Shown here in pieces: positions 2,651 through 62,970 of a stretch of 64,000 bases of DNA. A model generated the notes under the pieces. It worked only from the letters and a program-made list of their open reading frames with translations. It made no database searches and was not told where the DNA came from. The stretch is from Eledone cirrhosa (lineage: Eukaryota), in contig OZ024741.1 of NCBI GenBank assembly GCA_964016885.1, forward strand, positions 67,518,001 through 67,582,000, read 5' to 3'. Positions within the stretch are counted from its first letter, which is position 1. Every line of letters begins with the position of its first letter. The position numbers and the translations under genes are program-made.

Positions 2651-2813
2651 CTTTAAAATAACACTTAATACTAACCATTACTAATTTATACTTATTCCTA
2701 ATTAAACTATTTTTCACTGGAAAAAATCTGTCAGCATTTTCTTTTCCTTTTTACTAATATATATATATACAATGATATTAAATAAATGGAAACTATTTTT
2801 ATAAAACCATATT

Positions 2814-2876
2814 TATTTTATTATATATATTTCAAGGGTACCAAAAGACTTTGGTACGCTTTCTTCAGATAAAATA
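2814..2876 (-). ncRNA. Minimal type I hammerhead ribozyme (element B inverted arm)
   Basis: Minus strand: tattttat CTGAAGA aagcgtacc..ggtaccctt GAAA tatata TA ataaaata. Canonical core, 8-bp stem I. Confidence 0.8.
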
Positions 2877-3597
2877 CAAAGTTTGTTTTATAAATAGAGA
2901 CATACCCTGGAAAATCATACCTTATCAGTTGGATATTCTCTGGATAGTGGAAATGTATTAGGGATGTTTCAATCTTATGGGTGAATATGCAAATGAATAT
3001 GTAAATAATTGAAAAACAATCATTTATTTAAACGACTATGGAGAGAGAGAAGAGAGAAGAGAAGGACAAAATAGTGTGTGAGAGACAGGAAAAAAGCGAA
3101 GATGAATAAAAAAAAGTCATATAACGTTAATTTGATGGAAATATATTCGGATAATTATTTATATATATATATGTAAATATATATCTTAATAATATGTGTA
3201 TTTATATTAAAAGGCTTTTTTACGATTATTAGATGTTTAAAATTTGTTTATAATATATGTTTCATTCGTTTATAAGTAGATAAATGAAAAAATAAATAAA
3301 TAGATGGGTATATCATGTTATAGATAGTTGTTCTAATGAGTTATGAGGGATATTGGTTTTGTATTTTATGTAAATAAATATGTATTTAAAATTGAGAATG
3401 ATTTAAAATTAAATTAAATTAAATTAAATTAACTGAGTTAAGTAAGAATATTTATATTTATATCATTGAAAAGGGAAGATAAGGAAAAAACTCCGATTTT
3501 ATTTATTTATTTGTTAGTGTGAGACTATTTAGTCAAAATAAGCATGGATGTTTAAGATACATTTATCCAGAATCAGTTAGTGGTTATTAATCTAATG

Positions 3598-3785
3598 AAA
3601 AAATATTGAAAAAATATTGAGAAAATATTGAAAAATATTGAAAAAATATTGAAAAAATATATTGAAAAAATATTGGAAAAAATATTGAAAAAATATTGAA
3701 AAAATTTTTTAAAAATTAAAAAAATCTTTTTTGAAATCTTGAGAAAAATTTTGAAAAAATTTTGAGAAAATTTTAAAAAAATCAT
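3598..3785. repeat. ~10-bp (AAAAATATTG)n minisatellite in the element B UTR, mirrored at ~5440-5527
   Basis: Visible tandem units; reverse-complement units in the opposite arm. Confidence 0.8.
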
Positions 3786-4184
3786 TTTAAAGTAATTTTT
3801 TTAGAGATAAATAATTTTTAAAGAAATAAAAAAATATTGAAATTAAAATTTTAAAAAATTAGAATTATATACGTATATATTATATGAACATTTTTAAGAA
3901 GTGGAAGTACAACAAATGTTAGAGATATATTAAAACCAAGTAGATGAGATTGTTATGGAGATTAATAGGAATATTATAAGTATAATTATAAGTTATATAT
4001 AGTTCTGAATGTTGAATTCTGGCGATGTCCACAAGAATTAAATAAATTCGTTATTAGATTAATTGAGTTTTTACAGTTAAGTATATAAAACATTTCCTCA
4101 ATACACAATTTGCAGGATCTAGATAAAGCTGTGTTTCATTACGCGAGTGCCTTAGAAACTGTTTCCCAAGCTAATGAATATGTG

Positions 4185-5080
4185 ATATAATGGATATTGC
4201 AAACTACTACTCCTCTATTACTCCTAGTTTACTTAATAAGGCTCTTATATATGCATCTAAACATACAGATTTATCTAGTGAAGAAATGTATATCATTTTA
4301 ACTGCACGGAAAACTTTGATTGAATTCAACAATCATCTCTGGACAAGAGCCGATAGAAAAAATAATTTTGATATCACCATGGGATCATCTGACTCGGCGC
4401 AAATAACGGATCTTGTGGTGTTATTTATTAATAATACAGTGCATTGGCAGTATCAGTAGAGTGTCGGAATCCATGCTTTCCAGCATAGTTACGTCCCTTT
4501 ACGATCTGAGTTCAAATCCCGCCTTTCATCCTTACGGGGTCGATAAAATAAAGTACCAGTAATGCACTGGATAATCGCTGGCCATGTGCCTAAAGTAGAA
4601 ACAGTTATTTATTAATAATACACTGCATAGAAAAATACCAGAGATGACCGGTGGTTTATATCGTGATGATATGCTGCTTTTAATTGCAAATCATAGTAAT
4701 TGTGAAATAACTACAACCTTAAGTTAGAAATAGAGAATAACTATAAAATTGTTAACTTTTTAGACGTAACATTAAACCTTAGCACAGGGCTCGACTATCC
4801 ATTCCATAAAATTAATGAGAATCTAAACTATGTAAGTTTTAACTCTAATCATCCTAGATCTATCAAGAACACTATTGTCAATTGCGTCCAACAACGGATT
4901 TCACGCATCTCCGCTAATAAAAACATTTTTGATGATAAGGCTGAATATTACAATGAAGCTGTAAATAGAGCAGGGTATATAAATAAGATTAAATACATCG
5001 ACAACAATAATAAGGCAAATCCCCCTACCATTAATTGTAATAATAATAAAAAATTTAAATTAAACTCTAATACTAATATA
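4185..5080 (+). pseudogene. Hydra-like PLE RT fragment interrupted by a SINE
   Basis: ORF 4190..4459 aligns by eye with ORF 8135..9994 (LLNKAL, ARKT, NFDITMGSSDSAQ). It continues after 4620 with YRDD, FLDV, PFHK, SNHP and YYNEA. Confidence 0.85.
4438..4603 (+). mobile_element. tRNA-derived SINE with target-site duplication
   Basis: B-box-like gagttcaaatcc; core cctttcatccttacggggtcgataaaataaagtaccag; TSD ttatttattaataatac at 4421 and 4604. Confidence 0.85.
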
Positions 5081-5119
5081 TTATATACGTATATATATAT
5101 ATATGTATATATATATCCA

Positions 5120-5272
5120 CCAGGGCGGTGGATTGGCAGTATCGGTAGAGGGTCGGACGCCATGCTTTCCAGCATAGTTACGTCCCTTTACGATCTGAGT
5201 TTAAATCCCGCCGAGGTTGACTTTGCCTTTCATCCTTACGGGGTCGATAAAATGCCTAAAGTAGAAACAATT
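5120..5272 (+). mobile_element. tRNA-derived SINE, same family
   Basis: agggcggtggattggcagtatcggtagag head and the same central core. Confidence 0.8.
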
Positions 5273-6017
5273 ATATATGTATATAATTCTAATTTTGTAA
5301 AATTTTAATTTCAATAATTTTTTATTTCTTTAAAAATTACTTATCTCTTAAAAAAAATATTTTAAAAAGATTTTTTTTAAATTTATCAAGATTTCTTTTT
5401 AATTTAAAAGATTTTTTTTTAATCTTTTTTTTTCAAGATTTTTTCAATATATTTTCAATATATTTTTTCAATATTTTTTCAATATTTTTTCAATATTTTC
5501 TAAATATTTTTTCAATATTTTTTCAATAGATTAATAACCACTAACTGATTCTGGATAAATGTATCTTAAACATCCATGCTAATTTTGACTAAATAGTCTC
5601 ACACTAACAAAAAAATAAATAAAATCGGCGTTTTTTCCTTATCTTCCCTTTTCAATGATATAAATATAAATATTCTTACTTAACTCAGCTAATTTAATTT
5701 AATTTAATTTAATTTTAAATCATTCTCAATTTTAAATACATATTTATTTACATAAAATACAAAACCAATATCCCTCATAACTCATTAGAACAACTATCTA
5801 TAACATGATATACCCATCTATTTATTTATTTATTTATTTATCTACTTATAAAGTAATGAAAAATATATTATAAACAAATTTTAAACAATTAATAATCGTA
5901 AAATATCCTTTTAATATAAATACACATATTATTAAGATATATATTTATATATATAGATAATTATCCGAATATATTTCCATCAAATTAACGTTATATGACT
6001 TTTTAATTCATCTTCGC

Positions 6018-6170
<153 letters not shown>

Positions 6171-6379
6171 AGTATTAAGGGTACTATTTATGGTTATGTA
6201 TGCAATAAAACCTTTAATGGTAATATATTATATATACACAAACCCTAAATAGTGAGAGATAGTCATTAATTACTATCCTATTACCAGTAAGATAAATAGC
6301 TCAATGTAATAACATCAGTTGTTTTACAGAGTAGTTATATAGAGATTACAGTAATCAAAGTTCAGTTTAAGTCATTTAT

Positions 6380-6428
6380 TTGCTTACAATTGTTTCCTCC
6401 AAACCGAGGTTTGGATTCTTCGGAGCAA
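6380..6428 (-). ncRNA. Minimal hammerhead motif, U4C variant (element C 3' pLTR)
   Basis: ttgct CCGAAGA atccaaacc-tc-ggtttggag GAAA caattg TA agcaa; palindromic stem III ACAATTGT. Confidence 0.7.
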
Positions 6429-7964
6429 CTATTTATAACATACTTGACCTCCTTTTCAACCCAAGAGACACATAAAACATATGCGCATATTGATCAACAG
6501 TGGGGTGACATTCATCAAATGATATAGCATGGCAATTTACATATAAAGGTTACAGGATAAAAATAAAATAAAAACAAGAGTGAAAATAAGAGTGAAAATA
6601 AAGATAAACATGAAGCGTTGGCAGTCTATGAAGATAAAGCAAGAGGAAAGCTTAGAGTAGTCAGTGTATGAAACAATCTCCCGTGTAGCATGCACGCGTG
6701 TCTTATCTATACATGATTAGAGTGCGTCAGAATGATATTTGCAGGGTCAGGCAGTTGAAGCAGGGAATCGATCTTATTATGTAGGCTGAATTATTAAGTC
6801 ATTTATTCTCATACATCTGTATGATATACAGTCTCGGATGCGGGGAAACACCAAAATATCAAAAACCTTCAACATACTATAAACCTTATTGTATCGTAGG
6901 CAAGGCCATACCACTGTCCTTGCTCACACCACCACTCACATAATCCATGAGACGCAATATATATATAGAGAACACGCGTCTATCGTATAATTCGCGGTGG
7001 TTCAGCATATAGTCAAGCTATAAACCGCATCCAGTCGGTTCTTAATTAATATATCATGCTGTCCAGATTCCGGAAGTGCCTGAATGACTAAGGGGAAATA
7101 ATGCGTAAGGGGAGGTAACTAGCTAGTTATCTTAGTTACATTACTATCCTAAACTATATTAATGGTGATTCAAATACGTGCCTATCATGTGAAGTTATAA
7201 CTAATATCTAGAGTATGTTACCCATTTATAGGTTAGAGAGTTGTCCATTAAGAAGTACAAGGGTGTATATATTAGGATGATTACCATCCATTAATTAAGG
7301 GGTGTCATATCTGAACGTTCTATAAGAGGAGTCAGACTCTCAAGTCACTGCTCCATGCAAATGTAATATAACAGTAGGACCTGGTATGGTCCCACTATTA
7401 TATATGCTACCCGGTAGGCTCCGGGTCATTGCATGCCTGCATCTCCAGTAAATCTTCGGTATGATCCGGAGATCCAATCTCTCATATAAATGCACTAGTC
7501 TGGCGATCAAGCAATAGACAACCCCCGTCTCAAATATAAATCAATTATGTATCACATCTACAAGCTTGAGTGGAGTCTATTAATAGGTACTAAAGGAGTT
7601 CACATCAAGATGATTACGTGCATAATTCATTGAACTGATCGCTTACAGTATATATTCACTTAACAATACGATTATCTATCTAATCATCAATCTATCTCTT
7701 GGTGGTAATCCATGCACAGGACTATGCTATCGCAACCAGTACCGTGTCCCCAATTTATACTAATCTTATATTTGTGCAATGCAGAATAAGTAGTCCACGG
7801 TCGAGATATCAGTATTAGAGGTACAAGGGGGTATTCCCAGGGTAGGTGGTAGTAAAATGCTGTCAGTATTATCTTTAGAGTAAAGAGATGGGTGTGGATG
7901 TGAGGTGTAAGGTGTGCTACTGATGTTAATTGCTAGGGGTGGTGCCGGTTCCAGTCTGACATTG

Positions 7965-10460
7965 TTATATATAGGGTTTCAAGTTTTGGAACGAGTGTCG
8001 GAAGCGGTGTTGGCAATTTGCGAACACTTCTGATTTTTTATTAAGGAGATTATGTTTAGAGAAGATGATAGTATGGGTCTCTAGTAGACAGAGGTTACAA
8101 AATTTATCAGGTGGTTTGTACGATGTTGCACTACCTACCACTTCCCATTTAAGTGTATACATATTTTATTTTTAGTTTTTAGATAGTGTATGTAGCTAGA
8201 TAGTGAAGTGGAGTTGGCTAGACTGTGTTTTTTGAAAGAGTGGAGGTGCGAATTGTATCTAGTTTTGAAGCAGTTAGAAGTGGAGCCTATGTAGGTTTCA
8301 GAAGAGCTGTTAGTTGTGACTGTACATGAGTATATGATATCCTTGGTTAAGCATTTTTTATCTAAAGGGCAGGTTCTACTTGATCTACAGTTACAATTAC
8401 TCTGGGTGCTAGTCTGCCGGTTACTATGCTGTGTAGAAGTTTGGATGTTAGCTATAGGGTTATGGTTATGCGGGTTGTGGTACGCAGCGTTAATGTTTAC
8501 ACTAGTGCTATTACTATTATTTCCATTGATATTACGGTTATTTGTTATAATGTTACTTTGACTGTTATTTTGAATGTTATTTTGAAGGTTTATCGACCGT
8601 TGTGATTTAGTTTGTTGGAAGTAAGAATTAATTTTTCTTTTATTTGTACTAGCTATGTGGTATGTTAAGTTAGGCGTAGTAGAGTATGAGATCTTAATAG
8701 TGTTTTTGCTTAAAAGGCCGTGGTACCTGTGGCCGGATGGGAAGTGTTTATCTAGTAGTGAGCAGAAAGCCCTAGGAAGGTTGGTAGAGACGTTTAAATT
8801 GAAAGGAGGGTTGAAAAGTGTATTATTTCTTCTTCTATTTCTGTTTTTTATGTCTGGTGATTTGTTTCCTTTAATGTTCCTATGGTCATTTCTGTGGTGC
8901 GGGTTACTCTTGTTGTTACAATCCCTATTAGTGTGTGTGCAGTTGCTATTCTTATTATTAAATTTTCCCATGGACATGTTGTGTGAAATGATGTTGTAGC
9001 TATGTGTTTTTGTAGGTAGGAACTCTATCCCTGTATTATGGCCTGATCTAGCTAATGCCTGATTATAATACTGCGAGTTATTGTTAAATGTGTTTATGTC
9101 ATAGGATAGATTAGAGATTCTATTAGATACTCCCTTAGAGATAGAGTTCAATATAGATTTAGGGTGGTTAGACTTGGTATCTACGTAGATGAGTTTTTCA
9201 TTAGGTTTGTGGAAAGGTGCATATATCATTGAGTCTAAGTAGAGTGTGGCGTCTAGGAAGTTGACGTTTTTGGTGTTTTTGTCCATGGTAATACTAAGGT
9301 TAAAGTTTTTGAATGTTTTGTGCAATAGTTTTCTAGTCCTTTCTATATTGAATTTTTTATAGTCTATAAGTAGAAGTGCATCGTCGCGATACAAACCACT
9401 GCTGAGGTACGGAAGTTCCCTGTGGATTAGGTTAAGTAAGTATAGGCCAACCAAATCAGTGACCTGCGCCGAGTCACTAGACCCCATAGTAATGTCGAAG
9501 TTGTTTTGCGTATCCTTGCGGGTCCATAATTGGTCCTCAAAGGTGATTATTGTTTTACGGGCCGCAAGTATGACATCAATCTGGGGTCTAGTCAAGTCAC
9601 TATTGTCTATGGCCATTATAAGTGCCTTATTTAGTAGGATAGGGGAAATAGAGGTGTAGTAAGAGTTGATATCAAATTGAATAAATTTGTTATCCTTGTT
9701 ATCTATGATATTTTTGAACCATTCAATCACTTCACCCGTATTTCCCCATTGCTTAAGGTAAATCTTGTGTTTAATCTGTGGGATGATTTTGTCTAGGATT
9801 TTTTTACTGATAATGCCAATGTCAGACCTGTAGGGGCAGATTAGTCTAATCGAGGGGTTGCTAATGAAGTCTACATTATGGTCCTTCAGAGAGAATCTAG
9901 GGGTGTTTGGGGTGTAAGGTTGTGTATGTCTCTGGAGCCCTAGTTTGGATACTATATTATAGCCTTCCATATTAATATCTTCTAAGTTTTTCATAGTGGT
10001 TTTCTTGTAGCTTTTATGTAGTTCATTATATATAAACTTTCTATACGTATTATAATCTAGGCTGTATATGTTATTAGTTTTGTCGGCATGTACAAAAATT
10101 TTACTACTAGTTTTGAAGTCATTAATAGAGGTGCTAAGTTTGTTTAAGAAGGTGTTGTTTTTATTATGGTGTTTTTTGTATTTAATGTTTTTAACTAGTT
10201 TAATTAGGTCGTTTTCGAAGAGGTTTAGTAGTGTGTTATGAGGGGGGGGGGGGGGGGGCTTCTAAATGTTTTAAAGCCGAAGGAGTCAAATTTGTTGGTG
10301 TTATTATCCTTGGCAGATTTGTTTCTATCATAATGGAATGTCCTCCATCTCACTCTATTGATAAAGGAGTTTACACTGTTGATCAACAACTTTTCATATG
10401 TATTTTTGGTTGGTAAAGGTATGTTTTGGTTGACATAGGGAGTTGGTCTTTGATCAGCAT
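7965..10460 (-). CDS. Hydra-like PLE RT + GIY-YIG protein, ~830 aa after three 1-nt frame corrections
   Basis: MSTK/NIPLP..FINRVRW, FGFKT, FENDL, HADKTNNIY, QFDINSYY, MGSSDSAQ, GLYRDD, NFLD, FNPPF, CNCR..CPL..C, IIY..YIGST..FKTRYNSH, KWEV..CNLCLLE..LNKKSE..CQH. Frameshifts at ~10424, in the G17 run 10242-10258, and at ~8165. Confidence 0.88.
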
Positions 10461-10715
10461 GCTGGTAATTTATGGTATATCAGCTCAACAGAATGGAGCA
10501 ATTATTAGTATTAAGGGTACTATTTATGGTTATGTATGCAATTAAACCTTTAATGGTAATATATTATATATACACAAACCCTAAATAGTGAGAGATAGTC
10601 ATTAATTACTATCCTATTACCAGTAAGATAAATAGCTCAATGTAATAATATCAGTTGTTTTACAGAGCAGTTATATAGAGATTACAGTAATCAAAGTTCA
10701 GTTTAAGTCATTTAT

Positions 10716-10764
10716 TTGCTTACAATTGTTTCCTCCAAACCGAGGTTTGGATTCTTCGGAGCAA
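10716..10764 (-). ncRNA. Minimal hammerhead motif, U4C variant (element C 5' pLTR)
   Basis: Identical to the 6380-6428 motif. Confidence 0.7.
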
Positions 10765-11373
10765 CTATTTATAACATACTTGACCTCCTTTTCAACCCAA
10801 GAGACACATAAAACATATGGGTGCTCCCTTGGTTTATATATATATTGCGTCTCATGGATTATGTGAGTGGTGGTGTGAGCAAGGACAGTGGTACGGCCTT
10901 GCCTACGATACAATAAGGTTTATAGTATGTTGAAGGTTTTTGATATTTTGGTGTTTCCCCGCATCCGAGACTGTATATCATACAGATGTATGAGAATAAA
11001 TGACTTAATAATTCAGCCTACATAATAAGATCGATTCCCTGCTTCAACTGCCTGACCCTGCAAATATCATTCTGACGCACTCTAATCATGTATAGATAAG
11101 ACACGCGTGCATGCTACACGGGAGATTGTTTCATACACTGACTACTCTAAGCTTTCCTCTTGCTTTATCTTCATAGACTGCCAACGCTTCATGTTTATCT
11201 TTATTTTCACTCTTATTTTCACTCTTGTTTTTATTTTATTTTTATCCTGTAACCTTTATATGTAAATTGCCATGCTATATCATTTGATGAATGTCACCCC
11301 ACTGTTGATCAATATGCGCATATGTTTTATGTGTCTCTTGGGTTGAAAAGGAGGTCAAGTATGTTATAAATAG

Positions 11374-11422
11374 TTGCTCCGAAGAATCCAAACCTCGGTT
11401 TGGAGGAAACAATTGTAAGCAA
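11374..11422 (+). ncRNA. Minimal hammerhead motif, U4C variant (element C inverted arm)
   Basis: Identical motif on the plus strand. Confidence 0.7.
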
Positions 11423-11456
11423 ATAAATGACTTAAACTGAACTTTGATTACTGTAA

Positions 11457-11491
<35 letters not shown>

Positions 11492-11694
11492 CACTATTTT
11501 GTCCTTCTTCTCTTCTCTCTTCTCTCTCTCCATAGTCGTTTAAATAAACGGTTGTTTTTCAATTATTTACATATTCATTTTCATATTCAGTCATAAGTTT
11601 GAAAAATCCCTAATACATTTCCACTATCCAGAGAATATCCAACTGATAATGTATGATTTTCCAGGGTATGTCTCTATTTATTAAACAAACTTTG

Positions 11695-11757
11695 TATTTT
11701 ATCTGAAGAAAGCGTACCAAAGTCTTTTGGTACCCTTAAAATATATATAATAAAATA
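11695..11757 (+). ncRNA. Hammerhead motif of element B, probably inactivated (G12A)
   Basis: Same as 2814-2876 but GAAA reads AAAA. Confidence 0.6.
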
Positions 11758-11890
11758 AATATGGTTTCATAAAAATAGTTTCCATTTATTTAATATCATT
11801 GAATATTTAATCCAGGAACTGTTGAGTGCTCTAAATCAGTGATAAACATTTATATTTGTCGGATTTCCAACAAATTAAATACCCCTTCTA

Positions 11891-12082
<192 letters not shown>

Positions 12083-12330
12083 AGAGTATTGAAGTTTGCT
12101 TGAAGCATTGTGGAATAATAAGTAAATATCATTAAGTCGTTTGGAAGCCTTGACAATGCAAATGGGTAAATCTCCGGGTAACAAGATCCGGTGGTGGAGA
12201 GAGATATGTAAGTGGGTGTCCGTTGAGATGCGTGGTGTGTATGAGATGTGTAGAAGAATGAAGGAAAGAGTATAAAGGATAAAATAAAAATAACAACACG
12301 AGAGAGAGTTACCTTGGGAGAGATTTAATA

Positions 12331-12369
12331 GTCCCTATATATTTCGAATTCACATCCATCATCTGGGGG
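12331..12369 (-). ncRNA. Minimal hammerhead-like motif, U4A variant (element D pLTR); decayed copies at 15602-15640 (-) and 21206-21244 (+)
   Basis: ccc CAGATGA tggat-gtga-attc GAAA tata TA ggg. The other two copies read CAGTTGA and atcc. Confidence 0.5.
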
Positions 12370-12755
12370 TTTTTCCGGGGTGGGGGAAAGGGTTGTCTGT
12401 CGGACAGGTGCGAAACGCGTCCTCCGCTGTTTGTTGTTTTGAATATCTGAGGTATTCGGCAGAGCGCACGTGCGCGTGAAATAGGGTTTGTCGGGCAGAG
12501 GTCAGCGGCCGAATAAGGCAGTGGGGTGGCGCTAGCTGTCAGTCCATTCTCTGCCTGTTTGTTAAATGTTACTGTGTGTGTGTGTGCGTGTGTTGTTGTC
12601 TCGCTTGAGTGTGTGTGTGTGTGCGTGTGTTGTTGCCTTGTTCCTCTGTATTGGCAGTGTAGTATGTTCCTATGGTGGAATGCTACTGTGTGTGTGTGTG
12701 TAGTTGTCTCGTTTATGCGTGTGTGTGTGCGTGTGTTGCTGCATCGTTTGTTAGC

Positions 12756-15379
12756 TTAAACCAGCCATCTAATTTCGCTTCTCTCTGATCGGTTGTTTAT
12801 TTGCGGTTGCAAGCGTTTGATAAAAAGCGCTTCCTTGATACGTAACGTGCCGACGTTCCTTTCAGTCGCTAGAATTGTGACAATGGGCCTTCCGTCTTTG
12901 TTTCCGCATTTGTCTATGTGTTTCCGGAAAGACCAGGCCCTGGTTTTAGTGTGTTCCTTGATCCGGATGTGCAAAGGTCGGATTGTGCTACCTATGTAGT
13001 ATTGGTTGCACCTGTCACATTCTATCTTATACACGACGTATGTGCGTAGGGAACAGTTCGCATGGCGTATCGGGCAGTCTCTGAGGGAGCATGCGTCAGT
13101 AGATTTCCCGGGTTTCCTGGAGAGGTATCTTAGCAGGGAGGGGCCCGAGTGGGCCAGGTGGATGTCGAGGCCCTCCCTCCGTATAGCCTTGCTGATAGCG
13201 TTGGTGGTATTCTCGCCCAGGTGTGGCATTTTAAGGAAGCACTTGCCTTGGGTGCCTCTCTGTCTCTTGCGTCTGGTGTCTCCTATTCTGTCTGTGATCG
13301 AGGTAGGGTACGCGTTCGTCTCCAGCACCTTGAGGAATCGCTTGGTATGAGTGACACCACTCGCGGGATCGCTGCATCTGTTTTCGATTCGCGCGATCTC
13401 GTTCGTGATGTATCCTCTTTTGCCACTGTTAAGGAGGGCGGACTTGTAGTGAACGAACAGGTCCCTGCAGGCTGCCTTTCGGTAGAAGTTGTAGTGTATC
13501 CTTCCCTCTTCCGTGATGTTGATTCGGAAGTCGAGGAGGGCAAGTGACCCGTCTTCGTTGGGGTGTTCAACACTGAAGTCAATGTTCTCGTCCGTGTTGT
13601 TGAACGTCTCATATATTCTGTTCGCCGTGTCTTGGGAAGATGTGAGGATGAGGATATCGTCCACGTACCTTGAGAAAAAGGCTACGGCGTTGGGGTTGCA
13701 GGAGTTGAGTGCCTTGCGTTCGAAGTTGTCCATGTAAGAGATCGCTAGCATACCTGATAGGCTTGATCCCATGGGCAATCCCGAGTTTTGTTGGTATGTT
13801 TGGTCAAGGAATCCGAAGTAGGTGTTGTCGACGACGATGGATAGGAGTTGGTGGATGTCAGTGGTGGTGAGCCCGAAGCAGTGTAGGTCGGTGGATTGGA
13901 CGCGTTCCATCAGTATATTTATGGCCGGGAGTGCCGGGACCGAGGTGTAGAGAGCAACTACATGAAGGCTGAAGGCATATCTGTTATTCCTTCTGGTGTC
14001 GGGATCCATTTGATGCAGGCGCTTCAACACCTCCTCGGAGCTGTTAACGTGTCCCGGCAAGGTGTCTAAGATGGGTTTGAGTATTCTGGCTAGGAGCCAT
14101 GAAATTTTGTAGAGTGGTCCCTCCACGCTCGATACGATGGGCCTGATCTTCAGGTCGGGTCCCTGTTTGTGTGTTTTCACGAGGTGGTAGAAGGCGGGTA
14201 GTCTGCTGTTCCTCGTGAGGAGGTTGTATCTCCCCTTCTTCGGGAGCTTCCGCCGGTCGCAGATGTTGGTCCAGGCGGCATTGATGTGCTCTTCTATCTG
14301 CGCGGGAGTGATTCCCGTGACCTTGGAGTAGAAGTTGTCATCGTCAAGGTGTTGAAGGGCCAGGGTGTTGTAGGCCTCTCTGCTGATGACGCAGAATTCT
14401 TTTCCCTTGTCGGAGGGGAGATAGATGAGGTTCTTCGATTTTAGGTTGGAGAGAGTGGTGAGTTGAGATTTGGTGAGGTTATGTGTTGTGCGTGTGTGTG
14501 TGTGTTTGTGAAGTATATCCGAGATGGAGTGTTTTAGCCTAATGAGTTTAGTGTCGAGTTCGTGGTTGGTGGGTGGGGAGTGGAGTGGGTTTGTCGGGTG
14601 GTACGTGGGGAACTTGGGGTGGGTTGCGTGGGCTCTGTTATTTTCTGTGGCGCTGTTGATGGCGGTCACCCATTTAAGTTGGTAAGCGGCTCGACAAAAG
14701 TTGGCCTCGATGTTGAGTTTGAGTCTGTCGTCGAGACGTTGTGAGACGATGAACTTGGGTCCGAGATGTAGGAGTTTCAGCTCATCGCTCGTGAGAGTGC
14801 CGGTTAGGTCAGTGACCAGGTGCGTCGCATCGTTGAGGTATGGCTCGGTGTTGGTGGATGCGGCGGTGGCGGTTGTTAAGTTGTTGTTTCCCACGTGGTT
14901 CTGGTCAGTCTGTTCGTTAGTGTCGATGTTCTCGTTGTGGCGTTTCGACAAGATCCACTCATATTTTCGCTTGAGCCGTTTTTTCTGGTATTGGACACTG
15001 GAGTGGTAGCACTGGTCGATTGCTTTCGTGATTTTCAGGAGCAAGTACCCGGGTGTTATTGGCAGTCGATGTGTCCGCTCTAAGAGTGTCGGCTTATGGA
15101 CATGTAATTGGCTGTTGAGATGTCTCAGGATCTGTTTAATATACGTGCGATGTATGCGGTTAGTGGTGTTTGGGAAAGCTGGTGTATGTAGGCTTACTAG
15201 TAAGCGGATGTTCCAGATGGTGTTGGGGATGACATCGTTTTTTAGGCAGCGTTTCAGGAAAATAATTTGACAGTCAGCGTTGGCCATTTCTCCGACAGTC
15301 TAAACAGTTCCGTTACGGATGCAAACAATTCCTGGCTCAGGTGTAAGGATAAGAGAGTATTGAAGTTTGCTTGAAGCAT
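12756..15379 (-). CDS. PLE RT + GIY-YIG protein (843-aa ORF; probable true start [10 protein letters not shown] at 15379 with a 1-nt deletion at ~15288)
   Basis: LGPKF, PSDKG, KTHK..IRPIVS, GLPMGSSLS, RYVDD, LLDF, YRK, VVYKIECDRCNQYYIGST..RIKEH..KEA. RT motif A reads SLHVVALY (D to H). Confidence 0.9.
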
Positions 15380-16038
15380 TGTGGAATAATAAGTAAATAT
15401 CTTTAAGTCGTTTGGAAGCCTTGACAATGCAAATGGGTAAATCTCCGGGTAACAAGATCCGGTGGTGGAGAGAGATATGTAAGGGGGTGTACGTTGAGAT
15501 GCGTGGTGTGTATGAGATGTGTAGAAGAATGAAGGAAAGAGTATAAAGGATAAAATAAAAATAACAACACGAGAGAGAGTTACCTTGGGAGAGATTTAAT
15601 AGTCCCTATATATTTCGGATTCACATCCATCAACTGGGGGTTTTTCCGGGGTGGGGGAAAGGGTTGTCTGTCGGACAGGTGCGAAACGCGTCCTCCGCTG
15701 TTTGTTGTTTTGAATATCTGAGGTATTCGGCAGAGCGCGCGTGCGCGTGAAATGAGGTCGGTCGGGCAGAGGTCAGCGGCCGAATGAGGCAGTGGGGTGG
15801 CGCTAGCTGTCAGTACATTCTCTGCCTGTTTGTTAAATGTTACTGTATGTGTGTGTGTGCGTGTGTTGTTTTCTCGCTTGAGTGTGTGTGTGTGTGCGTG
15901 TGTTGTTGCCTTGTTCTTCTGTATTGGCAGTGTAGTATGTTCGTATGGTGGAATGCTACTGCGTGTGTGTGCGTGTGTGTGTGTAGTTGTCTCGTTTGTG
16001 TGTGTGTGTGTGCGTGTGTTGCTGCATCGTTTGTTAGC

Positions 16039-17487: not shown

Positions 17488-17566
17488 GTGTGTGTGTGCG
17501 TGTGTGTGTGTGTAGTTGTCTCGTTTATGCGTGTGTGTGTGCGTGTGTTCTGCATCGTTTGTTAGC

Positions 17567-18103
17567 TTAAACCAGCCATCTAATTTCGCTTCTCTCTGAT
17601 CGGTTGTTTATTTGCGGTTGCAAGCGTTTGATAAAATGCGCTTCCTTGATACGTAACGTGCCGACGTTCCTTTCAGTCGCTAGAATTGTGACAATGGGCC
17701 TTCCGTCTTTGTTTCCGCATTTGTCTATGTGTTTCCGGAAAGACCAGGCCCTGGTTTTAGTGTGTTCATTGATCCGGATGTGCAAAGGTCGGACTGTGCT
17801 ACCTATGTAGTATTGGTTGCACCTGTCACATTCTATCTTATACACGACGTATGTGCGTAGGGAACAGTTCGCATGGCGTATCGGGCAGTCTCTGAGGGAG
17901 CATGCGTCAGTAGATTTCTCGGGTTTCCTGGAGAGGCATCTTCGCAGGGAGGGGCCCGAGTGGGCCAGGTGGATGTCGAGGCCCTCCCTTCGTATAGCCT
18001 TGCGGATAGCGTTGGTGGTATTCTCGCCCAGGTGTGGAATTTTAAGGGAGCACTTGCCTTGGGTGCCTCTCTGTCTCTTGTGTCTGGTGTCTCCTATTCT
18101 GTC
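17567..18103 (-). pseudogene. Third, shorter 5'-truncated copy (linker + GIY-YIG only)
   Basis: ORF 17567..17845; the unit begins inside the (GT)n tract of the 3' UTR. Confidence 0.88.
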
Positions 18104-18214
18104 TGCTCCACTTACATCTCTCTCTCCACCACCGGATCTTGTTACCCGGAGATTTACCCATTTGCATTGTCGAGGCTTCCAAACGACTTAAAGATATTTA
18201 CTTATTATTCCACA

Positions 18215-22818: not shown

Positions 22819-22985
22819 GGAAAACGTATGACCCCGACGGCAGAGCTAAGCCGTTTCGACGGCTATTTCTGAGTCCAGAAATAGCCGTCGGGGTCATACT
22901 TTTTCCTATTACCCATTCTACTACCATAAGTATTGAGTACTCTGGTGCGTTATGGTCCATCTGGTTCCTTACCACAATTCCTTCG

Positions 22986-25714: not shown

Positions 25715-25718
<4 letters not shown>

Positions 25719-48075: not shown

Positions 48076-48272
48076 ATAACGAAGGAGGTGTGGTAAAGAA
48101 CCAGATGAACCATAACGCACCACAGTACTCAATACTTAGGGCAGTAGAGTGGGTAATAGGAAAATGTTTGACCCCGACGGCAGAGCTCAAGCCGTTTCGA
48201 CGGCTATTTTTGGACCAGTCCAGAAATAGCTGTCGAAACGGCTTGAGCTCTGCTGTCGGGATCAAACATTTT

Positions 48273-48276
<4 letters not shown>
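48076..48276 (-). mobile_element. Mini fold-back element (copy 4)
   Basis: Hairpin 48157-48276 plus tail 48076-48156; homologous to 30722-30930. Confidence 0.8.
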
Positions 48277-50745: not shown

Positions 50746-51115
50746 AGCATAAGATATTTAATTTGTTGGTTATTCAACAAATTTATTTATAACGTATTCA
50801 AAGTACTCGACAGAATTCTTCAATTATATTAATAAATGGAAACTATCTTTATAAAACCATATTTATTTTATTATATATCTTTCAAGGGTACCACAATTTT
50901 GGCACGCCCTCATCAGATAAAATACAAAAGTTGTTTTATAAATATTGACATATCCATAAAACGATAAGTTCTTGTTTTTTGGATATGACAATATTTATAA
51001 AACAACTTGTGTATTTTATCTGATGAGGGCGTGCCAAAATTGTGGTACCCTTGAAAGATATATAATAAAATAAATATGGTTTTATAAAGATAGTTTCCAT
51101 TTTTAATATCATTGA
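50745..51115. mobile_element. Short fold-back of a B-related pLTR with canonical hammerheads on both arms (50864-50924 minus, 51012-51072 plus)
   Basis: tattttat CTGATGA gggcgtgcc..ggtaccctt GAAA gatata TA ataaaata; centre ~50968; tail 50745-50820. Confidence 0.82.
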
Positions 51116-52186: not shown

Positions 52187-52237
<51 letters not shown>

Positions 52238-52657
52238 AAAGAATAGAGGTGTAACACACAAGTTATTATATATTGGTAAACGGAATAGAAAATGCTGACA
52301 AATTGTTCACAGTTGAAAAATGGTTTAATTAGGAATAAAAGAGTATTAGTGATTGTATGGGTTAGTATTCAGTTGTGGTTTTAAGTTTTTAAGTTTTTAC
52401 CGGTTGCGCATTTCTAAATGCTTTTCAAAAATAATTTTGAGATAGAGTGTCCGTGCTGTTTGCTCTGATCTGATTAGTTTTGGGAATTCTACCTGTTTTT
52501 ATGTTAAAAAAATGGCTCCAGCGTTATTTTTGTGTTGCAAAAATGCTTGTGGTCAAAACAATTTTGATTGGTCGGTAGAGGTCATGTGGATAAAAAATTG
52601 GTTTTGCGCCAAGATTGAGAAATGACTCTTTCACAACAAATATGTGTGTGTGTGGGT

Positions 52658-52761
<104 letters not shown>

Positions 52762-52833
52762 TAGTAGTAGTAGTAAGGTGTTCGATGCTGCGACAATAGC
52801 CACCAGCGATGTGTGTCAAATGGCTATTAAGAT

Positions 52834-52873
<40 letters not shown>

Positions 52874-53389
52874 ACATACACACAGCAGAGTCATTCGAAG
52901 GTCAAAAGATATTTTTCAGCTTTTGTCTTATACGGAGAAGTGCGTGTGTGTGTGTGTGTATAAGTCTCTTTGTATGTTGATGTACGCGTGTGTATGTGTT
53001 TGTGTATATATGTGTGTGTGTGTGTGTGTGCGTGTGTGGGTGGACCAGTATTTTTTTCCCCCCTGGTAAAATGGTGTACATTATTCGATTTTTTCAGTAA
53101 AATCGGTTCTCTTAATAGAACATCAACAATCTTAACAATAAAAGGTGTGAAATGATATTCACTATATATATATACACACACACACACACATATATATTTT
53201 CACTACATATATATATATATATATACATATATACATACATATATATGCACATATATTTTTTTGTATTGCACCATAGAGCATGTGTGTTTACGTGTGTCAT
53301 TGTGTTTATATGTGGGTAGAGATGTGTGCTGATGTAGGTATGTATGTTGACGTGTGTATGTTGTGGGTTCGTCTTAGGGAGAAGTGTTT

Positions 53390-55697
53390 AGACGGGGTCC
53401 GTATTTGTTAATGAAGTAAGATTCCTTGCTGATGCGCTGGGTGTGGGTGGCATTATCTTTAAATTTGTAGAGGGGAAAGATTCTGAAGTTGGGATAATTT
53501 TGGGCGGCGCAGGTATCAATGTGTTCACTCAGTGGTATTTTCAGTATTTCCGTATTTTAATTTGGGATCTATGGACAGTCATGCGTTGGCGGAGGCTGTT
53601 TTTGGTCTGGCCTATGTATTGTTCTCGACAACCTGAACAAGTTAATACATATATTAAATTTTCCGATGCACATGTGAAATTGTGTTTTACTATAAAACGT
53701 TGTCCATCTTTGAAATAGAATTCCGAACCCTCTATTAGGTTGATGCAAATGCCACAGTTGGGTCTATCGCATTTTTTTACTGTGGGTTTCGTTGTTGTGG
53801 TTGGCAGTACTTTGGCATGTGTTAAGATGTTTTTCATTGACTTGGATTGTCTTTTGCTCTTTATGATATCGTGTGTTCGTAGAATTTGGTTCATTCTATG
53901 GTCCTTTTTCAATACAGGGATGTTCTGGAGGATGGTGTCAAAGGCCTCGTTGTTGAGGGGGTTGTGTGTGGAGATGTATGGAAGAGCTTTTAGTTTTGGT
54001 TGATTTACTTTAGGGTGTCTAAGGTCCTGGGTACTGAGTTTTAGGGCACGTTGGATTCCATTGTCAATTAGTGATGCAGGGTAGTCCCTGCCTATGAGTG
54101 TGTCCTTTAGTTCTTGTAGCCGTAAGTAGCAGATGTTTTTATTGGAGAATATAGTACAGATTCTCTTGGCTAAGTTGTAGGGAATATTAATTTTAACGTG
54201 TCTAGGGTGGCAAGAGTTGAAGGGGAGGTATTGCTTGGAGTCTGTGGGCTTGTAGTATATGTCTGTTTCTATTTTCTTGTTATGGATCTTAATGAGGATG
54301 TCGAGGAAGGGGAGTTGTTGATGGCTGTATTCCATCGTGAAGTTAATATTTGTGTTGAGCCCATTTATAAGGGTGTGAAATTCTTTAAGTTTTTCGATGT
54401 TTTCGTGCCAAAGGATGAAGCAGTCATCTAGATATCGCTTCCAGTTCCTTTCAATGTGTAAGTGGAGGGTGTTTCCAAATTTGTTTAGGACTTTAGTGTA
54501 GAGGGTGATTTACAGGTATCCCATGACTAGGTTGGCATACGTAGGGGCTGTTTTCGTTCCCATAGCGGTCCCAGATTTCTGCCTGTAGGGTTTGTTATTG
54601 AAAACGAAGTAATTGTTCTCCAAGATAAATTTGAGTCCCTCTATCACGAATTCTTTTTTGATGCGTTGTGGGAGTTCATTGTGGAAGTTATCCAGCCAGA
54701 ATTGGATAGCTTCTATTCCTAGGTTGTGGGGGATGTTGGAGTATAGGTTGACTACATCGAACGTCACTAGTAGGGTTTGTTCAGAAAGTGGCATATTAGG
54801 GAGGTGATTGAGCATATGTAGGTCGTCCCTTATATAGCTTTTGATGTGCTTGAGGAAGGGTTTGAGAAGGGTATCAATGAAGTTGCTAAGACGGTGCGTT
54901 TCGCAAGCGTGGCCTGCTATTATAGGTCTTAATTTGAGATCATTGGGTGAGGGGACATTGATGACTATGTCTGTGGCTTCCTTGCATGCCTTACTGATTG
55001 ATTCGCTTTTATGTACTTTAGGGATACCGTAGAAAAGGCTGGATTTACTTGTGAAGTCTGTGATGAAGCTGAATTCCTTGTTAGTGAGTCCTTCTTTGTA
55101 TTGGTTGATTAGAGTTTTTAGGTTTCTCATAATTTTCTGTTGAGTGTAGTGTTCAGCCTTTTCGTAGTATGTTTCGTTTTCCAAAGTGGAGAGCGCTAAG
55201 TTGATATAGAATTCTGTCTCCATTAGGACTACTGTACTCCCTTTATCAGCCTCTTTAATTGTAATGGTTCTGTCGGTTTTTAATCTATTTAATTCTTCCC
55301 ATTCTTTCTTGTTGAGGTTTGGCTTGTGTTTTTGTCTGTGCAAGTGTTGGTAAGGGAAGTTTGTGATGTGTTCACAGAATTCGTCCAGGATTTTATTTCT
55401 ACCTTTTGAAGGGGTGTAATTGCTTCTATTTCTGGCTAATGATTCATCCTCATTGTACTGGTCGAATAGTTGTTCACTAAGTCGTAACTTTCTACAGAAG
55501 TCTGTGATGTCTTCCTTCATTTCATAGTAGTTAGGACGTAGTGGGGTCGGTGTGAATTTAAGACCTTTGGAGAGTAAGTTGATAAGGTTGGGTGTTGGTT
55601 CTGCACTAGTAAGATTGATAATTTTTATTACTATCGGTTTCTCCTCCCTGTCTTGTGTTATTTTGTTTGCCTGTATCTGTGTGCTGTGTCTAAAAAA
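53390..55697 (-). pseudogene. RT + GIY-YIG ORF of element H (one nonsense codon at 54510, stop/frameshift at ~53541)
   Basis: IINLTS..LLSKGLKFTPTP, KEADKG, FYGIPKVHK, LRPII, TFDVVNLYSNI, GTAMG, RYLDD, CDRPNCGIC, LIYVLTCSGCREQYIGQT. Confidence 0.92.
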
Positions 55698-56160
55698 TGG
55701 TTGGGGTAGAGGGGTTGTCTGCTGATGTTAAGTGGTCTCCTGTGTTTGTTATATTCCTTGTTGTTGTAAAATGTGGTTCGGGTTGGTGGTTGTAGATTGA
55801 ATGGGGTGTTCCTGTACTGCGAGTATGGGTGTGTGTTTCTATGTGCCATGTTGTATTGTGGTGTTATAAGTGGCCTACGTTGTTGGTTGTATCGTGTGGT
55901 GTGGGTTTGTTGTGTATTGTGGAAGTGAGAGTTGAGAAAATGGTAATTACCTTGCTGTCCCCTTGAGGCGGGGAAGTTGTTGCATCTATCATGGCGGTGG
56001 TATCTTTTCCCTATGTTTGACGATGAGGAATCCGCGTAGTAGTTGAGTGATTTGGTATGGTGTCTCCTTGAAGGGGGAAAGTTGTAAATGTCATTCTGGG
56101 GGAGATGATTTCTTGGGTTTTTGTTCCTTCTTATGGTAGCGAGGTTGGGAAGTTCATCTT
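55658..56160 (-). CDS. Putative upstream ORF1 of element H (5'-truncated; N/H/R/Y/P/T-rich)
   Basis: The frame of ORF 55658..55849 stays stop-free back to the inversion junction at 56160 (~167 codons). It ends NHFLDTAHRYRQTK*; element A ends similarly at 1-46. Confidence 0.6.
55691..55697 (-). promoter_or_regulatory. Candidate -1 ribosomal slippery heptamer U_UUU_UUA (alternatively a TTTTTTAG splice acceptor)
   Basis: ORF1 codons CAT TTT TTA GAC; the -1 frame CCA TTT TTT AGA runs into the RT ORF. Confidence 0.5.
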
Positions 56161-56230
56161 CTTAATAGCCATTTGACACACATCGCTGGTGGCTATTGTC
56201 GCAGCATCGAACACCTTACTACTACTACTA

Positions 56231-56308
<78 letters not shown>

Positions 56309-56785
56309 TTGTTGTGAAAGAGTCATTTCTCAATCTTGGCGCAAAACCAATTTTTTATCCACATGACCTCTACCGACCAATCAAAATTGTTTTGACCAAT
56401 AATTTTTGCTGGAGCCACTTTTCTAACATTTTAACGTAAAAACAGTCTTGGCGCAAAATCAACTTTTTACATTCACATGACCTCTACCGACCAATCAAAA
56501 TTGTTTTGACCACAAGCATTTTTGCAACACAAAAATAACGCTGGAGCCATTTTTTTAACATAAAAACAGGTAGAATTCCCAAAACTAATCAGATCAGAGC
56601 AAACAGCGCGGACACTCTATCTCAAAATTATTTTTGAAAAGCATTTAGAAATGCGCAACCGGTAAAAACTTAAAAACTTAAAACCACAACTGAATACTAA
56701 CCCATACAATCACTAATACTCTTTTATTCCTAATTAAACCATTTTTCAACTGTGAACAATTTGTCAGCATTTTCTATTCCGTTTA

Positions 56786-56865
<80 letters not shown>

Positions 56866-60384: not shown

Positions 60385-60665
60385 GTCACGAATGTCCATG
60401 GGATTTGCACCTAGAAAGTACTGCTCCGAGGCACAAGTCCGGCCAAGGTTGTTTGTGGAAGACCAGCAGTCGTCCATGCATAACAGTCTCACCTCTCCAT
60501 ACCACCGAAGTTATCCAAAGGAAAGGCAAAGGCTGATACAGCTTCGTTTTAGTGACGGCGCAACTCATTTCTACAGCGACGAGAAATATAGGACACAACA
60601 CACAGCCTTGGCCGGGAATCGAACTTACAAACTCTCGATTATAAGCCAAAATCTTTAACCACTAA
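60385..60665 (-). mobile_element. tRNA-headed SINE-like repeat
   Basis: Minus strand: tagtggttaaag A box, gttcgattccc B box, tgtgttgtgtcct. Confidence 0.65.
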
Positions 60666-60811
60666 TGAAAAAAAATACATAAATGTAATATGATTCTGAA
60701 ATTAACTCTCTCCGCAGAATTAGAGTTGAAGACAGGGAAAAGATGGACAGAGACGTCTCCGAGGCTAAATTTCCCGTCACATTAGTCTATTTCGTAATAA
60801 GTTTTCATAAT

Positions 60812-61022
60812 GGTTTTTGATTTAGGCTCAAGGCCCACAATTTTGGTGGGAGTGGGGGCGTCGATTAAATCAATATGTTTCTAGTATTTTATTTTATAGA
60901 TCTCGTAAGGATGAGAGACAAGGTTAACCTCAGCAGGATGTGAAGTCAGAACGTAAAGGGATGTAACTCTATGGTATAAAGCATGTTGTCCGAACGCTTT
61001 ACCGATACTGTCAAACCACCGG
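60812..61022 (-). mobile_element. Old tRNA-derived SINE copy
   Basis: cgtaaggatgagagacaaggttaacctc..ccgatactgtcaaaccacc. Confidence 0.7.
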
Positions 61023-61119
61023 CCTTGGCAGATTTTCAAAGTTAAACAAATAAATGTTTGACTTTCAAACTTATCTTCTTTGTAGTAAAGTTAAACGAAT
61101 GGATATATTTATATATATA

Positions 61120-62970
61120 TTTATTAAAATAACAGATTAAAGTTTAAGCAAAGAATCGCTGCTTTCACCCTTAACGGGATCTTCTGAAACTAACAAAGTC
61201 AATCTGTAAACGCAGAACTGGATATTTCAAAAAACGTTGCAACCGGAGGAAGACAGGAAGACGATATTTTGGTTCGTGGTAACGTTCGCTGGCAAAGAAC
61301 GGGAAAAAACGAATAATACGTCATTAATAGGAGCGGTGAAAAACAATTACGCGCAAAGACAGAACCACGTTTATGGTATAAAAGAGGTCGTAGACTAATG
61401 TTCTCTTAGGTGGTGCATAGAGACGTTCTCTGGCAATGAACGAAAAAACGAAGATAATAAGTCATATGTGGAGCGTGGAGAACAATAGCAGGCAAAGACA
61501 AAACCACGTAAATGGTATAGCAGAAATCGTAGACTAAAATTCTAACTAGGAGACCAAATGAATCTCCGCTACAGAGTTAAGAACAAAGTAAATAAATACA
61601 AAGATAATAGAAACAAATAAATACATACACGCAAACAGATACGTACATACACAAGCATACGCAAAACCTTACCATGGGTATTCAAAACCACGCACATATA
61701 AATATGTGTGTGTGTGTATGCTTGTGTACAAATAAATAAATAATTATATAAACGTATATAAGTAAATAAATACGTATATAACAAGCGCACACGCATACCT
61801 ACATATAAATACACGAATGTTCGGAGACGTAAGTCAACTAAAACAAGAAGTACACATATACACACACCCACCATACGTACGAACCTGCACACTCACGCGG
61901 ACGCCAAACTCCCGTATACACATAGCCAAACCCTAAAAACCAGAATATGTAAAAATTATACGCTATAACAGTCAAATATACGTACGAGAAGGTATACATA
62001 CCTTCACAAAACATACGGGTAATATATACTTACCTATGCAAATACGTAAAGGAATAATCAAAACATATACTTAGCTCCCACATCAAGACGTAAAATATCC
62101 ACGTATAGATCGTGCTATCCGTTAGGGTATAACGTGGGGCTGTAATACAGGAAAGTTTTGTGCAATTTATGTTTACAAGCCGAAATGCCTCAGATTTTTT
62201 GTTTAAGATGTGGTCTGTAGCGTAGAGTATTTCCAGGGCCTCAGCGGCGCAGAGGTCACATGGTCTTTTATTTCCGTTATACGATCTAGCCCTAGCTAGG
62301 ATCTCCCAGTGTAACTTATATTGGGTGTGGTTGTCTTTTAGACTCCAGATATAAGCTGAAAGTGACGTCATATTCCTTCTTAGAGGGTAACGAAAAGAAT
62401 GGGTATGCATGTAAAGACGCTGCTTGCAACTATTGGCGGTTAACCCTATGTAGGCCCTACGGGACGTGGGTGTTACAACCTTACATTTGTAGACAATGTT
62501 ACTAGAGAGGCATTTCCCGGATAGGGGGCAAACCACCCGATTCCTACAATTACAGTTAGTACTACCTACAGGGTTGCACGTGTTCCTACGGCTAGGTAGT
62601 TTAGCTAAATTTGAAGCTGTGATGTTATGTGCAAGGTTAGGAGTCGTAGAGTAAGACATTTTAATAGTATTTCTATTAAAAATCTTACTATATTTATGTG
62701 TAGGGGGAAAATGCTTCGTAATAAGGGAAAGAAAGATCTTAGCTAATGGTGTGGCCACCTCCATATTATATGGTGGGTTAAACCAACAAATGCGACGGGA
62801 TCTATTTCTTCTAGGTCTATTTTCGTACTCTGTATATGCTACCTTATCGACAAATCCACTTCGAGCAAGAGCTTCATTGTAATAAGTGGAAGGTTCTTAT
62901 ATATTTGATATATATTTTCCTTATCGAGCCCTCTTTGGATTTTAGTCTTCAATTTTATTATTATTACTAT
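61120..62970 (-). mobile_element. Hydra-like PLE family E: body 61120-62890 (-) plus inverted tail 62891-62970 (+)
   Basis: ORF 62030..62764: KHFP..KIFNRNTIKMSYS, CNCR..CPLSGKC, IVY..YIGLT..KQRLYMH, HWEIL, CDLC; no RT core. Confidence 0.9.

Follow-up and report, generated by a model that had tools for sequence, protein, structure and literature searches.

Many insertions of Penelope-like elements (PLEs) in the Eledone cirrhosa genome, as seen first in a 64,000-nucleotide stretch, terminate in two outward-facing 3′ ends of different kinds, one with a tail (L) and one stopping where the tail begins (S). The stretch, C2:67518001-67582000 of a 3.0 Gb assembly and referred to throughout as the window, is AT-rich eukaryotic DNA in which (TA)n arrays are abundant. 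One L end and one S end were found in 15 of the 15 insertions listed for the window (Table 1, all rows but element A), nearly all of them adjoining (TA)n, and in 64 of 67 two-armed insertions sampled across the genome. Dual-strand priming best explains two outward 3′ ends that are joined directly, without (TA)n between them, and inverted two-armed PLE insertions are probably products of such priming from two fixed start points.

Pairing of tailed and short ends

Comparison of the window with itself, with microsatellites masked, gave numerous inverted pairs, and elements D and B illustrate their anatomy. On the left of D, the sense strand ends ...ATATTTAC, followed by a 41-nt tail (12081-12121) and (TA)94; at the other edge, the inverted copy on the right finishes in ...ATATTTAC, and (AT)7 comes next. 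The same tail is found inside the tandem junctions at 15352 and 18242 and therefore belongs to the template. In B, the left S junction reads ...ATCATTG|(TA)n at 2771, and the opposite arm continues for 92 nt to 11893. The arms of B are 95% identical between 2770-3076 and 11801-11492 and 87% identical between 3089-3879 and 6024-5272, and divergence between the arms of one insertion ranges from 0.2% (C) to about 26% (the old pair at 36576-37897).

These observations agree with an original prediction made from the window alone, which had described two outward-facing 3′ ends, one tailed and one at a fixed point, and had also pointed to tails standing alone on one side, inverted against the body, and to an S position shared by related copies. 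Tail-only arms are present in E1, E3 and the element at 25394-25645, each with an S-ended body, and the S junctions coincide among the three E copies, among the four P-minis (each about 200 bp), and between A and H. The L/S signature is present in at least nine families of the genome.

Four families without DNA similarity to each other were searched across the genome: D, which is autonomous; M, the small family of the mini element at 50745, which bears a hammerhead-like core; C, which is young and gave matches of 100% identity; and E. The query was the 135-200 nt just upstream of the tail, so that there was no bias toward tailed ends. The best 40 scored matches per family were taken from 1979 (D), 1042 (M), 1414 (C), and 309 (E) candidates, mapped against one window copy per family, and inspected in their flanks. 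Removal of repeat views of one insertion (L012, L022, L020) and of apparent segmental duplicates (L108, L139, L140) gave 145 independent insertions. A genome search with H yielded only 12 candidates and missed the second arm of the window's own copy, and H is not part of the sample.

Two terminal arms were present in 67 of the 145 insertions, and 64 of these pairs were L/S (17 of 17 in D, 17 of 19 in M, 12 of 12 in C, and 18 of 19 in E), with two S/S pairs, both in M, and one L/L pair in E. The binomial probability of at least 64 L/S pairs in 67 is ~3e-16 against 0.5 and ~2e-24 against 0.37, the value predicted by how often single-armed insertions use each end, and the excess is significant in every family alone (P from 6e-5 to 3e-8). 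Four additional L/S pairs lie beside focal insertions (L058, L064, L142, L155), outside the count. The long/short pairing anticipated by the original prediction on tabulating termini thus appeared in the sample in 64 of 67 pairs, and S was likewise found to be fixed within a few nucleotides in all four families and not randomly placed. Termini fall at 3216-3221 (S) and 3255-3258 (L) in D, at 4167-4172 (S) and 4335-4336 (L) in C, at 441-447 (S) and 533-539 (L) in E, and at 138-149, mostly 147-149 (S), and 209-229, mostly 226-227 (L), in M. Tail lengths here range from ~39 to 174 nt.

Such figures make it very unlikely that each strand primes on its own RNA with S or L chosen freely, L/S pairs arising by chance, since about 37-50% of pairs would then be expected to be L/S and the pairing holds in each of the four families. 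Free choice would accord with in vitro work in which both sites were used on both strands with no strand difference (PMC11167929), with a heterologous S/S chimera at L013, and with the two S/S pairs and one L/L pair in the sample. The near-absence of L/L and S/S nevertheless indicates that the two starts are not chosen independently, presumably because each site is used once per particle.

Ten sampled insertions fell outside the two-armed and single-armed classes (D 6, M 1, C 1, E 2). Four could not be assigned to a class (L006, L033, L041, L121), and six have an inverted arm whose outer end is no 3′ terminus and lies at an arbitrary internal position (L001, L018, L026, and L035 in D, L105 in C, L151 in E). 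An example is C 730..1119 beside 4336..1049; L105 is flanked by (TA)n. Because the main end is L in five of these six insertions, S appears to act as the favoured one among a broader range of internal points for second priming.

Joining of the arms and the proposed start sites

Paired arms abut directly, without (TA)n between them, and arm lengths are independent within an insertion (523 versus 2638 in D L002, 3090 versus 103 in L019). Direct abutment and independent lengths point to two cDNAs made on opposite strands and later joined, and not to one folded product or two insertions. The window's (TA)n arrays do gather several elements, as at 24384-25909, yet two separate opposite insertions into one array would leave neither directly abutting arms nor a pairing of L with S. 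An assembly fold-back artefact is at odds with arms that differ by 0.2-26% and with an architecture that recurs at 64 sampled loci on many chromosomes. Both possibilities are barely credible and were rejected on direct abutment, L/S pairing, arm divergence, and recurrence.

A further alternative is that a single cDNA, at the 5′ truncation, folds back or changes template to its own strand, and that the resulting hairpin is opened with one tail short. Inner breakpoints are at most 32 nt apart in 7 of 18 D pairs (17 loci and the window copy; in L014 they are at 2961 and 2961), and in L001 and L027 a short inverted piece adjoins the truncation point, its end coinciding to the nucleotide with that of the main arm. 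No such symmetry of inner breakpoints was seen in C or E pairs. Equal breakpoints would arise just as well if two cDNAs both reached the end of a single broken RNA, which would also account for the short pieces in L001 and L027. Most pairs have very unequal arms, and folding gives no reason for a second end exactly at S beside (TA)n, which makes the snap-back of one cDNA quite unlikely.

Under dual-strand priming, the two-armed form would be a product of target-primed reverse transcription in which each nicked strand of a single target serves as primer. The two syntheses would start at different fixed points of the RNA, L at the end of the tail and S at its start, and each site would serve once within one ribonucleoprotein, which may be a dimer sitting on just one RNA. 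Priming by both strands, the mechanism put forward in the original prediction, is supported by arms that are joined directly without (TA)n and by two fixed start points that are used non-randomly. L-started synthesis would often abort in the tail or just past it, as though the complex working at S stood in its way, and would then switch to the other cDNA. L arms that end within or just past the tail were found in 5 of 12 C pairs (inner ends at 4150, 4182, 4183, 4203, and 4211, compared with S at 4162), in 4 of 17 M pairs, in L156 of family E as well as E1 and E3 of the window, and in 0 of 17 D pairs.

The composition of S termini in family C bears on how these ends are made. The C RNA at S reads ...GUAAUCUCU|AUAUAAC..., and (CT)4-34 is found between the element and (TA)n at 19 of 33 independent C S termini, with a TT-interrupted run at a 20th (L111). 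At internal S positions of C, (CT)n expansion was found in 0 of 13 cases, with always one CT unit after AATCT (Fisher ~1e-4 for termini compared with internal positions). At L089, GTAATCT is repeated at the S junction. The terminal (CT)n resembles the trace of repeated copying as synthesis begins, the telomerase-related reverse transcriptase (RT) presumably stuttering on UCUCU at the S start, and it speaks for S ends that come from initiation and not from trimming. The repeats could instead have expanded after insertion.

Trimming is central to the account given by Craig et al. 2021 (PMC8557442), in which tails stand on both sides or on none and the GIY-YIG endonuclease, recognising the tail region, removes or leaves one. 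Earlier work, as cited in PMC11167929, had the tail needed for recognition by the endonuclease. Against such resolution, the (CT)n stutter at C S termini points to a start of synthesis and not to cutting, insertions with a single S or a single L end occur, and partial tails of varied length resemble aborted synthesis and not precise cleavage. In vitro, moreover, RT starts map to both tail borders (PMC11167929). Endonuclease resolution is accordingly considered unlikely.

Element sequence continues beyond L in the tandem junctions of D and C. In D these junctions usually have a 12-13-nt gap between L and position 1 (13 nt in the window copy, TATCCTTACACCT), and in C the unit start follows L. 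From its sequence, the continuation fits an internal site in a multi-unit transcript, and would equally fit a jump from the 5′ end of one RNA to the 3′ end of another. The original prediction had put the tailed start at the RNA 3′ end, whereas both starts were internal to the template in the only biochemical study (PMC11167929).

ATAT or TATA occurs within the tail's first five bases in four of nine families (H, B, C, E), compared with a background of 3.3% of positions in reference copies (P ~1e-4), and the tail begins TAT or TTAT in three more families. Because a UA-type motif opens the tail in four of nine families, a (TA)n primer could pair with the RNA at S, and S may be favoured partly for this reason.

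The original prediction had also placed S downstream of a ribozyme, which appears to hold for the B/M family only. In that family, a motif search found a hammerhead-like CUGANGA-stem II-GAAA core, with covarying stem II and an 8-bp helix I, which predicts cleavage ~46 nt upstream of S; the same kind of search found no core in D, C, E, or H. Rfam gave no hammerhead at E <= 0.1 over the whole window, nor at E <= 10 in 50700-51150, and the matches obtained were set aside as spurious miRNA-type hits on palindromes and (TA)n. Two further hammerhead-like cores were located by motif at 32766-32797 on the plus strand (CTGATGAGTCCTGC...GCAAGGACGAAA) and at 26587-26615 on the minus strand (CTGATGAAACAG...CTGTCGAAA). 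Both are outside all detected inverted pairs and may belong to single-armed elements.

The insertion of C into the right arm of B allows its flanks to be compared with a paralogous site. C is bordered by (TA)14 on the L side and (CT)6(TA)10 on the S side, B resumes at TCACTATTTTGTCC, and a (CT)58 array lies further out from the C flanks. At the corresponding point, the left arm of B reads ...TTTTTTCCTGTCTCTCACACACTATTTTGTCC..., without (TA)n (3040-3130 versus 5990-6171 and 11457-11540). Among single-armed C insertions, (TA)n adjoins the 3′ end in 24 of 24 and the 5′ junction in only about half. Flanking arrays may be partly made at or after insertion and not be pre-existing targets, although one nested case and this asymmetry do not establish it. 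For 69 D and C insertions, no uninterrupted paralogous copy of both flanks was found in the 1.1 Mb of sequence fetched for the loci. No allele of the L077 insertion was found, its flank being an abundant repeat (4973 candidates), and four public sequencing runs searched over 5200-12300, all consisting of short contigs, contained no usable joint skipping C and no piece spanning the stretch.

These elements can be combined in a narrower model that is possible but, taken as a whole, doubtful. One dimeric RT-endonuclease would act on a single RNA with its subunits at S and L, so that exactly one tail is left per double insertion. The L copy would often die at the footprint of the partner, S would be read by pairing with (TA)n, and RT stutter would deposit (CT)n and perhaps also the (TA)n at the flanks, in which case PLEs would create microsatellites and not only target them.

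Several points weigh against coordinated priming from both strands as a general account. Three of the 67 two-armed insertions are exceptions, L045 and L063 with S/S and L153 with L/L. Single-armed insertions make up 68 of the 145, with 51 ending at S (D 8, M 12, C 20, E 11) and 17 at L (D 4, M 6, C 3, E 4), and many are flanked by (TA)n at either side. Among M copies, several are short but complete units, which start ...CCAAACTGAAC and have (TA)n immediately on each side, and clean single-armed copies are also found in D and C. Dual priming is therefore facultative, and the expectations that almost every insertion would be double-ended and that twin priming would be obligatory did not survive the genome sample. 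The sample holds the 40 best-scoring matches per family and is not a census, and the two-armed share of 46% is probably an overestimate because a two-armed insertion can be picked via either arm. Most L arms of D, and many of C and E, run hundreds to thousands of nucleotides past S, so that a single RNA would need strand displacement, or else a second RNA would be involved. The chimera at L013 joins the S arm of a P-mini to the S arm of a D element (L013:6950-7114), from which it follows that two RNAs can take part. Finally, the start sites reported in vitro did not differ from the top to the bottom strand, and the start is described as not homologous to the target (PMC11167929).

Elements and other features of the window

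The elements of the window are assigned by their sequence to endonuclease-positive PLEs because D encodes RVT_1 followed by a C-terminal GIY-YIG domain and because pseudo-long terminal repeats (pLTRs) and tandem junctions are present. In D, Pfam identified RVT_1 and then the C-terminal GIY-YIG in minus-strand open reading frames (ORFs) at 12756-15299 and 16039-17607. The RVT_1 matches of D have E = 1.7e-9 and 4.4e-11. The C-terminal PF01541 match in 19902-20819 scored 24.7 bits (cut-off 22.6), and those of two further D copies only 19-20 bits. Weaker RT or GIY-YIG fragments are present at 1-2386 (A), 49019-50742, and 53310-55727 (H). pLTRs formed by partial tandems occur in D, where 15352-17488 lies upstream of 12081-15338 and 18108-18242 upstream of 18243-21453; in C, where the pLTR is 312 nt long; and in sampled loci L025, L032, L037, and L101.

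The ORF of C had no Pfam match and nothing significant among PDB sequences, and a BLASTP comparison with the D ORF gave E = 0.17, which is not significant. A YRDD motif was recognised by eye, and the C-terminus reads ...IIYSC...TYIGST. The Atlas clusters nearest to this ORF carry GIY-YIG, RVT_1, and HTH_animal, which is a lead only.

Table 1. PLE insertions of the window, with their arms and ends (window positions)
Feature	Coordinates	Type or coding content	Arms and ends
Element A	1..2755	plus strand; H relative	cut by window start; S-type 3′ end, homologous to S of H
Element B	2771..11893	non-autonomous	S end 2771 on minus-oriented arm; hammerhead-like core 2868-2830; L end with 92-nt tail 11802-11893 on plus-oriented arm; right arm interrupted by C
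Element C	6172..11456	young; ORF 8135-10261, minus strand	L end 6172, tail ~174 nt (6172-6345); full unit to 10507; pLTR 10508-10819; inverted 622-nt S arm 10835-11456, then (CT)6(TA)10
Element D	12081..21453		minus-oriented tandem pieces 12081-15338, 15352-17488, 17500-18105; L end 12081; plus-oriented pLTR 18108-18242 and full unit 18243-21453 ending at S
P-mini copy 1	22819..22986		tail ~85 nt and 62-nt arm, loop, 62-nt S arm
E1	24463..25370		tail-only L arm 24463-24536, minus-oriented, joined to plus-oriented 836-nt S arm
B/mini-type element	25394..25645		inverted tail-only L arm and plus-oriented S arm; hammerhead-like core 25546-25587
P-mini copy 2	25717..25909		as P-mini copy 1
P-mini copy 3	30725..30928		as P-mini copy 1
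Palindromic mini	33185..33545		L arm left, tail ~56 nt; S arm right
E2	34262..36558		minus-oriented L arm, tail and ~1490 nt; plus-oriented S arm 35855-36558, internal deletion
Old inverted pair	36576..37897		arms ~74-78% identical; 48-nt tail left, S end right
P-mini copy 4	48079..48274		as P-mini copy 1
M-family mini	50745..51115		L arm (tail and 143 nt, minus) and S arm (plus), hammerhead-like core in each
Element H	52234..56788	RT/GIY-YIG fragments, minus strand	L end 52234, tail ~39 nt (to ~52273); inverted S arm 56443-56788, then (AT)38
E3	61117..62967		minus-oriented body, S end 61117; plus-oriented partial tail only, 62892-62967

Some neighbouring elements are in close contact. The S end of A faces the S end of B across (TA)7. 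At 50742-50745, the PLE fragment 49019-50742 and the M mini meet head-to-tail, 5′ end of the fragment to L end of the mini, and an E-family tail adjoins a C arm in L079 at around 855-985. Together with the chimera at L013, these mixed-family junctions suggest template switching between RNAs of different PLE families. Orphan partial tails are present at L144:2699-2779 and L041:1108-1177, between TA-rich or unrelated sequence, and are possibly aborted L-primed events.

A dispersed repeat of ~130-190 bp, with copies in both orientations at 75-97% identity, is found at 4437-4615, 5122-5253, 22068-22254, 29094-29679, 44363-44537, 47757-47873, 57643-57842, and 60804-61026. It is partly tandem, with a 204-bp period at 29312-29679. 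Contig depth in the public runs is very high at 5200-5436. The abundant repeat that flanks the C insertion at L077:150-560 (= L114) has many matches as close inverted pairs and may represent a further palindromic family of PLE type.

Identical truncated insertions with identical flanks were found at L131, L139, and L140 (C12:12.09-12.21 Mb) and at L107 and L108 (C1:211.9 and 212.4 Mb); identity of insertions 120-480 kb apart indicates segmental duplications carrying PLE copies. In runs X5 and X6, which have two other organism labels, contigs cover parts of C and D at 88-99% identity, so the C and D families are common to relatives of the source species.

Relation to known retroelements

No major class of eukaryotic retrotransposons is understood less well than PLEs, whose complex tandem and inverted insertions still lack an explanation in vivo. 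A related mechanism is twin priming of L1, reportedly described by Ostertag and Kazazian in 2001, in which the second nicked strand is said to prime on the element RNA and thereby to produce an inverted segment. The inverted piece of an L1 insertion derives from RNA further upstream and shows hardly any overlap with the 3′ piece. The insertions studied here are alike in that the second strand primes, and the six loci with non-terminal second arms look like the classical form. They differ in that both arms hold the 3′ region and overlap by hundreds to thousands of nucleotides and in that the second start is fixed, and for these reasons they work like twin priming but are not of the L1 type. As a term for PLEs, "twin priming" was not found in the literature searched, apart from incidental mentions.

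In stringent-type long interspersed nuclear elements, 3′-tail repeats arise by template slippage, and telomerase carries out repeat addition. By analogy, the (CT)n at the S termini of family C would be accounted for if a short motif of the template were copied repeatedly. The stutter bears on the kinship of PLE reverse transcriptases with telomerase. PLE RTs are described as the sister group of telomerase RTs (PMC8557442).

The canonical architecture of PLEs was set out earlier by Evgen'ev & Arkhipova 2005 and Arkhipova 2006, as cited in PMC8557442. According to Craig et al. 2021 (PMC8557442), partial tandems form pLTRs, an inverted copy with 5′ truncation frequently lies at the upstream end, a tail extension of 30-40 bp often stands at one end only, and (TA)n is a frequent target. 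The insertions described here share the pLTR tandems, the inverted truncated copy, the tail at one end, and the (TA)n bias. They differ from that description in tail length, ~39-174 nt compared with 30-40 bp, and in that the rule of one tail per pair is quantified here (64 of 67). Arms consisting of a tail or partial tail only, and stutter at S, are not mentioned in the passages of PMC8557442 on architecture.

The nearest biochemical system is the Anolis Poseidon PLE of Frangieh et al. 2024 (PMC11167929), whose purified protein cuts both strands of the DNA and extends them. The RNA is reverse-transcribed from two adjacent internal sites, which lie downstream of the hammerhead and bracket the tail; AlphaFold predicts a dimer, and targets are AT-rich. 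Use of both strands as primers and two fixed starts parted by the tail are shared with the elements studied here, in which the 67 sampled and 15 window insertions with two outward 3′ ends joined directly point to priming by both target strands. Starts downstream of a hammerhead are apparently matched by the B/M family with its hammerhead-like core, whereas D, C, E, and H lack a canonical core by motif search. The Anolis start is reported to be without homology to the target, in contrast to the UA motif at S in four of nine families here. The in vitro study demonstrated both-strand priming and two sites, not their combination within one integration event, and in the parts of PMC11167929 consulted for this comparison it did not take up the question of a different site at each end of one insertion; here the ends are paired as L and S.

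Both the architecture and its biochemical basis are thus already published in the relevant passages of PMC8557442 and PMC11167929, and the inference drawn in the original prediction is in substance in print. The signature is a known kind of PLE insertion, usefully quantified, and not a new kind of system. New here are the near-exclusive L/S pairing, tails of up to 174 nt, abortive tail-only arms, and the stutter and UA motif at S. The L/S rule offers a practical way to delimit PLE insertions, which annotation pipelines often misread. The 64 of 67 pairs suggest that use of the two start sites is coordinated and that each excludes the other, and this constrains models of the integration complex.

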